A DNA stretch of 63,217 bases from Escherichia coli (lineage in GTDB: Bacteria; Pseudomonadota; Gammaproteobacteria; Enterobacterales; Enterobacteriaceae): NCBI RefSeq assembly GCF_003334255.1, contig NZ_QOWU01000026.1; one strand, 5' to 3'. The notes beneath the pieces were generated by a model. The model worked only from the letters and a program-made list of their open reading frames with translations, was not told the DNA's origin and did not search any database. The position numbers were made by a program, and so were the translations under genes. This document shows, piece after piece, positions 59,394-62,509 of the stretch; position 1 is the first letter of the stretch, and each line of letters opens with the position of its first letter.

Positions 59394-61355
59394 TTGCAGA
59401 ATGCATCACTTAACGGAGAGATCGATAACGCACTGGACGCTTATTTTTCGAAAAATGGCGGCGCAGGCGGTAATCGTCCCGACGTAAAACTCCTTGTTAA
59501 GGACAAATACGGCAAGCAGTATCCCGTTCTCATCGAGTATAAAGGCTACAAGGACAGGCTTATCAGACTTGGCAGCAACGGTATTATTGAGAACAAAGAT
59601 GCCAGAAAAGAATGGAATTTTAAAAATATTAATGGATACGCGGTGAATGGCGCAGTCCATTATGCCAACGCACTTCTTCAGTTCACCAATTACCCTGATA
59701 TTATTGCTATTGGTATGACCGGCTGGCGCGATGATGGTACAGGCGAACTGCATCATGAAATCGGCGTGTGGTACGTATCAAAGAATAATTTAGGAGCCGG
59801 ACAGAAGGTTGGTGAATTCACCGACTTATCGTTCCTTGCTGACAAAAATGTTGATGGATTTCTCAACAAGATAAAGCTGCTTAATCTTCCTCCCGAAGAA
59901 CTGGAAAAAATCAAGGCCAGCAAAGAGGAAGAGATAGACACGCGACTTTCCCGTCTGAATAACGATATTTACCAGAATGAAAAGGGGCTTGGTGAAAGCG
60001 ATCGTGTTTACCTTGTTGTGGCTACCGTTATTGCAACGTTGGGGATTCCGGGAAAGTTAGCACCGCTGGATAAAAAAGAACTGACCTCTTCAACGGAGGA
60101 GGACTTGCGTGATGGTGATATTATTTTCAGGAAAATAAGGAATTTTTTAAGGCTGAAAGCTGTTCCTGAAACAAAAAGAGAAATGATTTTGCGCTCGTTG
60201 CAAAATACGCTGTGGACTGAAAACATTAACAAACCAGTCAACGGTGAAAGCCAGTTAAAGCGCGTGTTTGTTAAAGTTGTTGATGATCTTGGGGAGTATT
60301 ACAAAATTGGACTGACCACCGATTTTACGGGCAAACTGTTTAATGAGATGTATCGCTGGCTTGGATTTACGCAGGACAAGCTCAATGACGTCGTTCTGAC
60401 ACCACCTTATGTTGCCACATTGCTGGCACGACTCGCCAGAGTAAACAAAGATTCCTATGTGTGGGATTTTGCTACAGGTTCTGCGGGATTGCTTGTGGCT
60501 GCAATGAATGAAATGCTCATTGACGCCAGAGAAAATATTCACTCACCGAACGAACTACAACTTAAGGAAGCGCAAATCAAGGCTGAACAGCTTCTTGGCC
60601 TTGAGGTGTTATCCAGTATTTATATGCTGGCCATCCTGAATATGATTTTGATGGGGGATGGTAGCTCGAATATCCTCAATAAAGACTCGCTGGCCGATTT
60701 TGACGGCAAGTATGGATTTGGGAAAACAGGAGAAAAATTCCCTGCGGACGCATTTATTCTCAATCCTCCGTATTCAGCTAAAGGTAACGGCATGATTTTC
60801 GTGCAGAAGGCGCTGTCGATGATGGATAAAGGCTATGCTGCAGTGATTATCCAGAGTTCAGCTGGCACAGGAAAGGCTACGGAGTACAACAAAAAAATAC
60901 TCAAGGAAAATACCTTGCTGGCAAGCATCAAAATGCCTGCGGATCTGTTTATTGGTAAATCAAGCGTTCAGACGTACATTTACGTTTTTCAGGTAAAAAT
61001 TCCGCATAACGCGAAACAGGCTGTTAAGTTTATCGACTTTTCCAATGACGGCTACGCTCGCTCTAATCGCAAAAAGGCAAGAAACAATCTTGTTGATGCC
61101 GATCGTGCAAAAGAGCGTTATCAGGAGGTTGTGGATCTGGTTCACTTCGGGAAAGGTTGCCTTAATATCTTTACGGAGGATGAATATTTTGAGGGAACAA
61201 TCGATCCTGATAGTGGTGAGGACTGGAATCAGACCAGGCCAGTAGATGCTAGGCCAACGCTGGAGGATTTCAAAAAGACGGTAGGTGATTACCTTGCATG
61301 GGAGGTCTCGCAATTACTGAAAAAACAAGGTGAAAACAATTTTGCGGGAAAGTAA
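59394..61355 (+). CDS. type IIB (BcgI-A-like) restriction-modification subunit: PD-ExK nuclease + gamma-class N6-adenine methyltransferase
   Basis: Nuclease motif GGNRPDVKLLV...YPVLIEYKG (PD..ExK). AdoMet motif VWDFATGSAGLL. Catalytic motif LNPPYSAKG. Coordinates follow the ORF track (TTG start). The frame is actually open from 59214, and the natural start is probably ATG 59218 in a different repeat state. Confidence 0.7.
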   Translation: MQNASLNGEIDNALDAYFSKNGGAGGNRPDVKLLVKDKYGKQYPVLIEYKGYKDRLIRLGSNGIIENKDARKEWNFKNINGYAVNGAVHYANALLQFTNYPDIIAIGMTGWRDDGTGELHHEIGVWYVSKNNLGAGQKVGEFTDLSFLADKNVDGFLNKIKLLNLPPEELEKIKASKEEEIDTRLSRLNNDIYQNEKGLGESDRVYLVVATVIATLGIPGKLAPLDKKELTSSTEEDLRDGDIIFRKIRNFLRLKAVPETKREMILRSLQNTLWTENINKPVNGESQLKRVFVKVVDDLGEYYKIGLTTDFTGKLFNEMYRWLGFTQDKLNDVVLTPPYVATLLARLARVNKDSYVWDFATGSAGLLVAAMNEMLIDARENIHSPNELQLKEAQIKAEQLLGLEVLSSIYMLAILNMILMGDGSSNILNKDSLADFDGKYGFGKTGEKFPADAFILNPPYSAKGNGMIFVQKALSMMDKGYAAVIIQSSAGTGKATEYNKKILKENTLLASIKMPADLFIGKSSVQTYIYVFQVKIPHNAKQAVKFIDFSNDGYARSNRKKARNNLVDADRAKERYQEVVDLVHFGKGCLNIFTEDEYFEGTIDPDSGEDWNQTRPVDARPTLEDFKKTVGDYLAWEVSQLLKKQGENNFAGK

Positions 61356-61414
61356 ATTCCCCGCTCAGCGATAAATTAAGAAGCGTTGAGTGGGGAGAGT
61401 TCAGGATTGGCGAT

Positions 61415-62509
61415 TTGTTCTATGTGAGCACAGGCTCGCTTATCTCCTCAGGAAGATTAAAACCAGGCAAAATCAAACGTGTTTCAGCAAAGAGCGATCA
61501 AAACGGTATCATCGGAGAGTTTGATACCGAGTTTATGGATGATGCAAGGCATTATGAAAATTTTATAAGCGTTAATTTTTTTGGAGATGCTTTTTATCAT
61601 CCTTATTGTGCCAGCGTAGAAATGAAGGTGCATGTTCTTACATTAAAATCAAGTAAGTCCGACTTTAATGCAAAGCGCGGACTGTATGTTGCCAGTATGA
61701 TTAATAAAGCTTTAAAGGGGCGTTTTAATTATGGTCAACAGTTATCGAGTTCCAAACTCAGAGATGGAGAATATTTCATCTCATTACCAGTGAAAAATAA
61801 TGAAATTGACTGGTTTTTTATGGATAATTATATAGAAGAGCTGGAAGCGGCCCATATAGAAGAGCTGGAAGCATACCTGATAGCTGCTGGGCTGAGTGAT
61901 TACCAACTAACGGAAAAAGATTATCTTATCCTGGAACATTTTAAAAATATTGAATTTTCAGGCTTTCCTGTTACTGAGTTATTCTCAGTGTGCAATACAG
62001 GAAACATATTGTCTAGAGACATCATAGAAAATAGTGGGGATGTTCCTTATCTTTGTGCTAGCCGTGATAATAACTCTGTTAGTTCTTATATCGCCTATGA
62101 TGACTCACTCTTGGAAAAAGGGAACTGTATTTTTATTGGTGGTAAGACATTCGTTGTAACTTATCAGGAGCGAGACTTTTTTTCAAACGACAGTCATAAT
62201 TTGCGACTCTATGTTAACAATGAGGATGGAAGGACAAAGTTTGCTTATTTGGGCATTATTTCATGTATTTATAGGTCTATTTCACATAAATATTCATGGG
62301 GGGATAGTGTTAGTAATAGAAAAATTAAGAACGATGTTATTTGGTTGCCAGTGAAAAATAAGTCACCTGACTTTTGTTATATAAATGACCTTATTTCAGT
62401 TGTTCATAAGCTTGTCATTAAAGATGTTGTCCAGTACGCAGAACGCAAAATGAACGCATACAGGCAAGCTATAACAAGTCGCGGTTATGATGATTCTGGT
62501 GTCAGTTAA
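61415..62509 (+). CDS. specificity (S / BcgI-B-like) subunit with two TRDs
   Basis: Two TRD-like halves (..EWGEFRIGDLFYVSTG.. and ..FPVTELFSVCNTG..). Each is followed by a conserved helix (ISLPVKNNEIDWFFMDNYIEELE / IWLPVKNKSPDFCYINDLISVVHKL). Coordinates follow the ORF track (TTG start). The frame is open from 61334 with no ATG. Confidence 0.7.
   Translation: MFYVSTGSLISSGRLKPGKIKRVSAKSDQNGIIGEFDTEFMDDARHYENFISVNFFGDAFYHPYCASVEMKVHVLTLKSSKSDFNAKRGLYVASMINKALKGRFNYGQQLSSSKLRDGEYFISLPVKNNEIDWFFMDNYIEELEAAHIEELEAYLIAAGLSDYQLTEKDYLILEHFKNIEFSGFPVTELFSVCNTGNILSRDIIENSGDVPYLCASRDNNSVSSYIAYDDSLLEKGNCIFIGGKTFVVTYQERDFFSNDSHNLRLYVNNEDGRTKFAYLGIISCIYRSISHKYSWGDSVSNRKIKNDVIWLPVKNKSPDFCYINDLISVVHKLVIKDVVQYAERKMNAYRQAITSRGYDDSGVS
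61831..61878. repeat. 24-bp tandem duplication in the S-subunit central spacer
   Basis: TATAGAAGAGCTGGAAGC occurs at 61831-61848 and again at 61855-61872, encoding IEELEAAH-IEELEAYL. Confidence 0.9.

Follow-up and report, generated by a model that had tools for sequence, protein, structure and literature searches.

Within a 63,217-nt stretch of an Escherichia coli genome (contig NZ_QOWU01000026.1 of assembly GCF_003334255.1; hereafter the window), a lambdoid prophage carries a restriction-modification (R-M) system with two coding frames: RM, an N6-adenine methyltransferase subunit with a probable fused endonuclease, and S, the specificity subunit. The S frame lies in −1 relative to RM and has no ATG, GTG or TTG before a codon that is already inside a conserved block of the protein. 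How, then, is S made? From the comparisons described below, which are of sequence, it was concluded that the RM/S junction is very probably a programmed −1 ribosomal frameshift cassette of the dnaX or IS3 kind, which would give free RM together with an RM-S fusion.

By direct reading, the 3' end of RM at 61341–61355 is ...TTT GCG GGA AAG TAA, and the slippery heptamer in front of the stop codon permits re-pairing of tRNA-Gly and tRNA-Lys on GGG AAA in the −1 frame (Table 1). The −1 frame is the S frame; it is preceded by a TGA at 61331–61333 and is open from 61334, where it reads KQFCGK VNSPLSDKLRSVEWGEFRIGDLFYV..., and its translation begins KQFCGKVNSPLSDKLRSVEWGEFRIGDLFYV.... The open reading frame (ORF) listed for S, 61415–62509 and 364 aa, sits in this frame, and its TTG at 61415 is the earliest ATG, GTG or TTG, is the Leu codon of a conserved GDLF block, and has an AGGA (61403–61406) located 8 nt on its 5' side. 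The window has no single uninterrupted R-M-S reading frame, the RM stop codon separating the two frames; the RM frame itself is open upstream as far as 59214. An earlier, sequence-only reading of this DNA had described the same RM end and heptamer, the S frame open from 61334, the lack of ATG or GTG in 61334–61414 and the AGGA before the first start codon, and had likened the heptamer to that of lambda gpG/gpGT; all of these points agreed with the sequence, the translation and the ORF list, and the lambda heptamer is identical. Its placing of the conserved block that opens the target-recognition domain (TRD) of S upstream of the TTG was borne out by the Pfam domain described below. Its concern about a homopolymer error at 61344–61352 could be set aside, because identity over the 3.3-kb region was 100.0% (to one decimal) with phage PhiR12_3 and with each of 7 complete, independent E. 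coli genomes, which excluded a sequencing error of this kind.

Table 1. Features of the RM/S locus, in window coordinates
Feature	Coordinates	Strand	Details
Perfect heptanucleotide repeat (GACCAGC)x11	59227..59303	+	Tandem Repeats Finder; between ATGs 59210 and 59218 and the RM body
RM gene (zero frame), N6-adenine methyltransferase subunit with a probable fused endonuclease	59394..61355	+	653 aa from TTG 59394; ORF list, Pfam
Shine-Dalgarno-like AAGGTGA	61327..61333	+	12 nt separate it from the heptamer; pairing of GGUGA with UCACC at the 3' end of 16S rRNA is possible
Slippery heptamer G_GGA_AAG in the RM frame	61346..61352	+	direct reading; GGGAAA invariant in the 73 aligned junctions
S (specificity) frame after the −1 shift	61352..62509	+	first codon GTA 61352–61354, stop 62507–62509; two target-recognition domains
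RM stop TAA, abutting the heptamer	61353..61355	+	sequence; unshifted ribosomes would terminate there
Stimulatory RNA hairpin (predicted)	61358..61396	+	13-bp stem 61358–61370 / 61384–61396, loop 61371–61383; 5-nt spacer from the heptamer
Possible internal start codons of a free S truncated at its N-terminus: TTG 61415, GTG 61424 (choice of the annotation pipeline PGAP)	61415..61426	+	not conserved in homologues; inside the conserved GDLF block

Searched with a profile of RM, species-representative genomes gave 80 loci, and with other loci fetched, 85 distinct junctions were scored. The 80 loci span Clostridia, Bacteroidota, Campylobacterota, Beta- and Gammaproteobacteria, Microcystis, Spirochaetota, Saccharibacteria and Gracilibacteria, with RM 70–73% identical in all. 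Of the 85 junctions, 81 combined a slippery heptamer in the RM frame with a long −1 ORF, two had a fused single ORF, and the remaining two had a heptamer with a broken S. Wherever S was intact in a split junction it lay in the −1 frame, and its start codon was not conserved. The two junctions with a broken S (L008 and L055) kept GGGAAAG and the stop codon with −1 ORFs of only 5 and 73 codons; decay of S is probable in both.

The heptamer was G_GGA_AAA in 49 of the 81 junctions, G_GGA_AAG in 28 and A_AAA_AAG in four, and it directly abutted the stop codon in 74. The codon giving the first base of the heptamer encodes Leu, Glu, Ser, Pro, Gln, Gly or Ala, and its third base always completes the heptamer; the Gly codon is invariably GGA in the GGGAAAR junctions. 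For 73 junctions that could be placed in a gapless alignment, which was used for the analyses of conservation, pairing and Shine-Dalgarno (SD) complementarity, GGGAAA was invariant (73/73) and the 30 nt 5' of it were poorly conserved. The nucleotide conservation of the heptamer in these loci exceeded what the encoded amino acids need. At one locus (L090), A_AAA_AAG replaces G_GGA_AAR with position and hairpin unchanged, and this reads as a swap of one canonical heptamer for another. By our own estimate, the chance of an in-frame X_XXY_YYZ heptamer within the ∼6-codon overlap is ∼2% per sequence, so that chance cannot give an arrangement that recurs in 81 of 85 distinct homologous junctions.

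The RNA downstream of the heptamer is predicted to fold. The minimum free energy (MFE) of the window hairpin was −23.3 kcal/mol with a z-score of −4.69, and none of 200 shuffled sequences was as good. RNAalifold applied to the 73 junctions predicted the same stem unprompted. When a 12-bp version of the stem was scored over these loci, 95.8% of the cells were standard pairs, compared with 34–48% when one arm was slid by 1–3 columns. Five stem pairs showed compensatory (double) changes, and 0 of 500 shuffles, uncorrected for kinship, reached the observed values. At alignment columns 51/73, U-A was found in 31 loci, U-G in 17, C-G in 21 and C-A in none (Fisher test, 1.2e-7, without phylogenetic correction). 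Changes in column 51 are silent, this being the third base of a Leu codon (CTT/CTC), and column 73 flips the partner codon between Glu and Lys (GAG/AAG); an amino-acid change thus goes along with a silent one, which is what selection for RNA pairing would produce. An Rfam scan of 61100–61600 at a permissive E-value gave only chance-level matches far under the gathering scores, which indicated that no known RNA family covers the hairpin. On the 5' side of the heptamer, the pairing energy with the anti-SD sequence peaked 9–14 nt upstream in the 73 loci, and a 4-nt SD core was present there in 58. The AAGGTGA of the window is a possible upstream stimulator; its match is weaker than the GGAGGA of most loci.

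The S frame has no start codon of its own that is shared by the family. No ATG, GTG or TTG precedes the conserved Trp of S in 44 of the 81 junctions, and no ATG does so in 68; where candidate starts were present, they were at scattered positions and mostly Leu TTG codons. It follows that S would be made mainly or only as the C-terminal part of a fusion. Annotation points the same way. RefSeq labels the locus as two genes, 'HsdM family methyltransferase' and 'restriction endonuclease subunit S', and the S starts chosen by PGAP are GTG 61424 in the window, GTG (L001:3625), CTG (L002:3496), ATT (L003:4581) and CTG (L093:3268), the annotated S of L002 overlapping RM by 55 nt. The use of CTG, ATT and GTG implies that no normal S start is available, and such annotation would hide the likely fusion product.

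Two further sets of candidate starts were considered and rejected. Those at +27 and +30 from the heptamer are TTG codons in the hairpin loop for a conserved Leu and are not conserved as starts, and the ATG that often follows the stop codon (TAG ATG) lies in the RM frame and not in the S frame. In three Neisseria members (L053, L058, L078), the hairpin loop of the cassette contains an ATG in frame.

At the protein level, RM matched Pfam N6_Mtase (E=4e-21), and it carried an invariant IEYKGY motif and, at the N-terminus, a weak VRR_NUC-type nuclease match (E 0.003, below the cut-off). Pfam Methylase_S was found in two stretches of the S frame, the first of which starts at residue 18 of the extended frame (61385), 10 codons 5' of TTG 61415. 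With a start at the TTG, S would lose ∼22 residues conserved among homologues, and with them the first 10 positions of that domain. The predicted trans-frame protein consists of RM residues 1–653 followed by VNSPLS... and has 1038 aa. It aligned over 99% of its length, at 53–58% identity, with natural single-chain proteins of ∼1050 aa (for example from Campylobacter concisus), and over ∼80% with one-domain fusions of ∼855 aa; P0022, P0047, L048 and L050 are true single-chain relatives. Single-chain homologues colinear with it and equal to it in length were 53–68% identical. The lengths at the junction matched residue for residue, as seen for the frameshift-type L014 (...NRLGK/INASLNNRLQAVKWGEY) and the fused P0087 (...DDSLGGISTKLNEKLQSVKWGEY), and again for the frameshift-type L003 (...ASEKK/AVNSRLAELEREF) and the fused P0022 (...PKQSLISERITNLEREF). 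This colinearity of split and fused proteins indicated that the coding constraint on the −1 frame starts exactly at the heptamer. Downstream of the heptamer, the −1 frame had no stop codon in 73/73 loci, and the zero frame had 1.8 per locus.

An AlphaFold2 model of the fusion was of moderate quality, with a predicted local distance difference test score (pLDDT) of 68.9, a predicted TM-score (pTM) of 0.46 and a poor methyltransferase core, and it was used for junction-local features and fold class only. The model matched the M and S subunits of Type I enzymes, the HsdS structures 1ydx and 1yf2, the RM and S subunits of BsaXI, and BpuSI, the match to the BsaXI RM subunit having low TM-scores. 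A phmmer search of RM against PDB sequences gave no match, and structural relatives were found by fold only. In the model, the junction falls in a low-confidence linker (645–655) after the C-terminal RM helix (623–647), and a TRD1 helix (657–663) and β-strand (666–671; pLDDT >80) precede residue 675, which corresponds to TTG 61415. An S started at the TTG or GTG would therefore miss the modelled helix and strand.

Relatives with another gene organization served as controls. In the fused L048 there was no heptamer, and the equivalent 60 nt had an MFE of −1.7 kcal/mol (z +1.0); in the fused L050 there was none in the X_XXY_YYZ register (TTA GGA AAA), and the MFE was −6.7 kcal/mol (z −0.7). In L092 (L. 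salivarius pMP118), 53% identical over the RM C-terminal region, two genes are present, with an ATG overlapping the RM end (ATGGTTAA, L092:3228–3235), no heptamer, and an MFE of −6.7 kcal/mol (z −0.1); its S begins MVKFQKFRIGDLF, upstream of the conserved block. Since both elements are absent from these three relatives, the heptamer and hairpin are confined to loci in which the frames are split and S lacks a start. In the sequence-only reading, homologues having an ATG-started S and no conserved heptamer were named as the pattern that would speak against frameshifting; this pattern was found in the distant L092 only, and not in the close family.

The RNA/DNA motif alone was also sufficient to find the family. 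In a public viral collection it retrieved 6 contigs, all with an RM frame of ∼680–690 codons upstream; five had a −1 frame of 374–386 codons downstream, and the ORF of the sixth runs off the end of the fetched locus. Metagenomes yielded at least 120 contigs and at least 95 distinct junctions, and among the matches listed, the RM anchor motif was found upstream in 113 of 116 testable cases and a −1 ORF of ≥300 codons in 79 of 90. A plasmid-borne member was identified in C. perfringens by reading its junction, and further plasmid members are probably present in Arsenophonus and Acinetobacter, as suggested by tblastn only. Members were thus seen in Clostridia, Bacteroidota, Campylobacterota, Proteobacteria, Cyanobacteria, candidate-phyla bacteria, phages and plasmids.

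Close to the window itself, three diverged enterobacterial alleles were compared, namely L002 (84.6% nucleotide identity to the query), L003, which comes from another E. coli strain, and the Salmonella allele L091. All three differ considerably in linker sequence, and RM ends ...GA A_AAA_AAG NNN TAA, with the heptamer one codon before the stop (stretches at L002:3538–3550, L003:4536–4548 and L091:2029–2041). S is again in the −1 frame, and another hairpin, ACUCCCG...CGGGAGU, was predicted at −17.6 to −20.3 kcal/mol. The S N-terminus of these alleles is different, NSRxxxLEREF. With another heptamer, hairpin and S N-terminus, they show that this prophage niche holds two versions of the cassette.

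From these observations we infer that slippage occurs, and the following course is proposed. Ribosomes translating RM would reach G_GGA_AAG with the 13-bp hairpin, which starts 5 nt downstream, positioned at the mRNA entry channel, and the upstream SD-like sequence may pair with 16S rRNA. A fraction of the ribosomes would slip back by one base (GGA AAG to GGG AAA) and continue via GTA 61352 into the S frame, giving the 1038-aa RM-S fusion (...NNFAGK-VNSPLSDKLRSVEWGEF...); the others would stop at the adjacent TAA and release free RM of 653 aa. One fusion and one free RM would then provide an (RM)2S composition, with the ratio set by frameshift efficiency. G_GGA_AAG is among the most efficient slippery motifs in E. 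coli, and in reporters it gave 0.28, 3.8 and 43% −1 frameshifting with no, IS911 and IS3-pseudoknot stimulators, respectively; the values for G_GGA_AAA were 0.12, 0.51 and 17%, and stimulatory structures generally begin 5–8 nt downstream of the slippery sequence (PMC4066793). Judging from these reporter values and the spacing of the stimulator, a sizeable fraction of ribosomes would be expected to shift. An (RM)2S composition was established for BcgI (PMC3592470) and BsaXI (PMC11997821), and an artificial M-S fusion of EcoKI was active together with free M (PMC3510504, PMC6158711), which makes a functional unit of one fusion and one free RM plausible. With less assurance, we consider it reasonably likely that a large, horizontally spread Type IIB family makes S only as a frameshift-generated RM-S fusion, the efficiency fixing the RM:RM-S ratio and an (RM)(RM-S) assembly being formed.

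Several points weigh against a frameshift cassette or lessen the evidence for it. Five loci (L025, L040, L046, L072, L083; junction GGGAAAATGA) have, besides the heptamer, an ATGA overlap of the stop with an S-frame start codon, where an independent S start could be provided by translational coupling; these loci may be an evolutionary intermediate. In the window, AGGA-N8-TTG could yield some free truncated S. Both arms of the hairpin are coding, and because the 3' arm overlaps the conserved Trp-Gly codons, part of the hairpin conservation is driven by the protein; the shuffle tests carry no phylogeny correction. The SD-like motif coincides with Glu/Asp codons of an acidic linker. Moreover, the ATGs at 59210 and 59218 are both out of frame with the RM body in the window allele, and this allele is probably OFF or N-terminally truncated; if it is OFF, the frameshift cassette would matter only in ON variants.

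It was considered unlikely that RM and S are two ordinary genes, with S translated independently from TTG 61415 or GTG 61424 and with an incidental heptamer and hairpin. PGAP annotates a separate S from the GTG, BcgI-type enzymes have a separate S subunit (PMC3592470), and L092, at 53% identity, has a genuine ATG-started S; however, the real start of L092 lies upstream of the GDLF block and comes without heptamer or hairpin, whereas the TTG is merely the Leu codon of that block and its AGGA is not conserved. Such a start would remove the ∼22 conserved residues with the modelled helix, the β-strand and the beginning of the Pfam domain, and it leaves the GGGAAA invariance and the covarying hairpin unexplained. 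Quite improbable, too, is termination followed by restart at a nearby ATA, GTA, CTG or ATT, in which the hairpin and the G-rich heptamer would aid production of a free full-length S. The stop codon is always a few nt from the onset of S-homologous coding, hsdM and hsdS of EcoKI are translationally coupled via a 1-nt overlap (PMC3510504), and the ATGA overlap of the five loci would fit. Nevertheless, no start-type codon is conserved after the stop, the first S-frame codons being ATA, GTA or ATG and then variable; the invariance follows the X_XXY_YYZ rule exactly, including swaps between canonical heptamers, and the 5-nt spacing of the hairpin is typical of frameshift stimulators (generally 5–8 nt; PMC4066793).

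Colinear single-chain homologues and the few loci with a broken S might suggest that an ancestral fused RMS gene was broken by a 1-nt indel, with S no longer expressed. This is highly improbable, for the split is common to 81 of 85 distinct junctions in many phyla, the intact S ORFs have ∼370–390 codons and diversified recognition domains, no −1-frame stop was found near the junction, and the heptamer and hairpin are under selection at the nucleotide level. We give hardly any credence to restoration of the frame in a subpopulation, be it through slippage of transcription at GGGAAA or through phase variation of this run in the DNA. The G3A3-4 tract is too short for appreciable slippage of polymerase or in replication. 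Its length is fixed in all loci, compared with 11–83 copies of a 7-nt repeat upstream of RM, so that it does not show phase variation of the repeat type, and a hairpin 5 nt downstream is a ribosomal and not a polymerase stimulator. It should be mentioned that A runs can cause slippage of RNA polymerase (PMC4066793) and that the enterobacterial variants have 7 consecutive A's.

The three options offered by the sequence-only reading can thus be told apart. The alignment of homologues, which it had proposed as a check, showed the heptamer kept in 81 of 85 junctions, S without a conserved start codon, and colinear fused homologues. A programmed −1 shift is supported by the invariance of the heptamer, the covarying hairpin at 5-nt spacing, the SD-like motif as a possible stimulator, the absence of a conserved S start, the colinearity and the controls. 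Given the shared split, a recent accidental indel can practically be dismissed; an ancient split followed by selection for a slippage signal is compatible with a programmed shift. Initiation of S at TTG 61415 is possible as a minor route in the window, with its AGGA 8 nt upstream, and is unlikely as a general explanation, the start being neither conserved nor able to give a complete TRD1.

A programmed shift at RM/S can be compared with known recoding systems. In dnaX (τ/γ) there are an SD-like element, to which the upstream motif of RM/S may correspond, and likewise a heptamer ending in A_AAG and a hairpin a few nt downstream, and two products with a common N-terminus are made from one mRNA in a set ratio for one multi-subunit machine, as is proposed here; L002, L003 and L091 even use the identical heptamer, A_AAA_AAG. 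Unlike here, the shifted product of dnaX is the shorter one, ending at a −1-frame stop, whereas in RM/S the shifted product would be the longer fusion and the unshifted one stops at once; the gene families are unrelated. Lambda G/GT, also of a lambdoid phage setting, has G_GGA_AAG at the end of the upstream ORF and makes an extended fusion beside a short product. To our knowledge, it shifts at a few per cent and has no strong downstream structure, in contrast to the conserved 11–13-bp hairpin of the RM/S cassette. Since the proteins are unrelated, the cassette is not a member of the lambda G/GT family. In OrfAB of IS3 and IS911, a −1 shift fuses overlapping ORFs at motifs of the A_AAA_AAG or G_GGA_AAG type with SD-like and hairpin or pseudoknot stimulators (PMC4066793); the RM/S overlap, however, is of a few codons only, its downstream ORF would have no independent product in most loci, and its function is defence and not transposition.

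Among restriction enzymes, BcgI and BsaXI share with the window system an RM subunit with N6-adenine methyltransferase and, as is probable for the window, nuclease, and a Type I-like S with two recognition domains, the sequence similarity of BsaXI to the window RM being too low for phmmer. Their S is treated as a separate polypeptide, whereas here S, for which no start is conserved, would be tethered to one RM chain. The trans-frame protein is colinear with natural single-chain RMS homologues (the AloI, TstI and HaeIV class; P0022, P0047), in which S is tethered by a flexible linker (PMC11997821), as in the model of the window fusion; in contrast to these, the window frame is interrupted and free RM would be made, so that RM:S would be >1 and not 1:1. 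EcoKI also changes frame at the M/S junction, and its engineered fusion with free M is a precedent for assembly of RM-S with RM, but hsdS has an ATG overlapping the hsdM end by 1 nt, no frameshift is involved, and the fusion is artificial (PMC3510504, PMC6158711).

A 2025 paper on BsaXI sorted the modellable sequenced Type IIB enzymes into 'RM + S' and 'single-chain RMS' (PMC11997821). The full-text literature searched, with subscription journals and REBASE notes mostly outside it, contained no report of ribosomal frameshifting in restriction-modification of this kind. An RM/S frameshift was absent from the accessible parts of the Atkins 2016 recoding review, Antonov 2013 (GeneTack) and Sharma 2014 (the Enterobacteriaceae heptamer survey), and from the papers on BcgI, TstI and BsaXI; methylome papers on the BcgI-like systems of H. 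parasuis and N. gonorrhoeae gave no motif or subunit data bearing on expression. While the mechanism of frameshifting is textbook knowledge, its use in restriction-modification, and its breadth there, appear new. If correct, the RM/S cassette would extend the two recognised Type IIB architectures, RM + S and single-chain RMS, by a third mode of expression; it connects both of them and suggests a translational setting of the RM:S ratio. The main product, a fusion of ∼118 kDa, would be missing from databases, in which the loci are annotated as two genes with arbitrary CTG, ATT or GTG starts of S, and enzymes expressed from the annotated S ORF would be truncated. Beyond insertion sequences, phage tail genes and dnaX, bacteria would with this cassette have a further conserved −1 signal with RNA structure, one that would be among the most widespread outside mobile elements. 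Its natural heptamer swaps and covariation make it a good model system for recoding.

The locus was found downstream of primase, NinB, NinG, Q and hok toxin genes of the prophage. The R-M system lies between the Q antiterminator and hok genes and the late region (window 58158–59043), and in a related phage it is directly upstream of tRNA genes and stx2 (L003:6106–7578); it occupies the classical moron, or Shiga-toxin, site.

Upstream of the RM body, the RM frame is open through the heptanucleotide repeat, and ∼35 conserved N-terminal residues are encoded before TTG 59394 with no start codon. The number of repeat copies was 11 in the window, 83 in L001, 64 in L002 and 23 in L003, one of these three strains being otherwise identical across the R-M genes, and in the database protein P0014 an ATG, the repeat and RM are in a single frame. 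By slipped-strand phase variation, the (GACCAGC)n tract probably switches the whole R-M system on and off. A repeat-based on/off switch at the prophage moron site would bear on prophage-encoded defence and on heterogeneity of the E. coli methylome. Just 5' of the heptanucleotide repeat, a 17-nt unit (TCAAAAAACGATGATTT) is repeated 2.1 times at 59183–59217, overlapping the first ATG.

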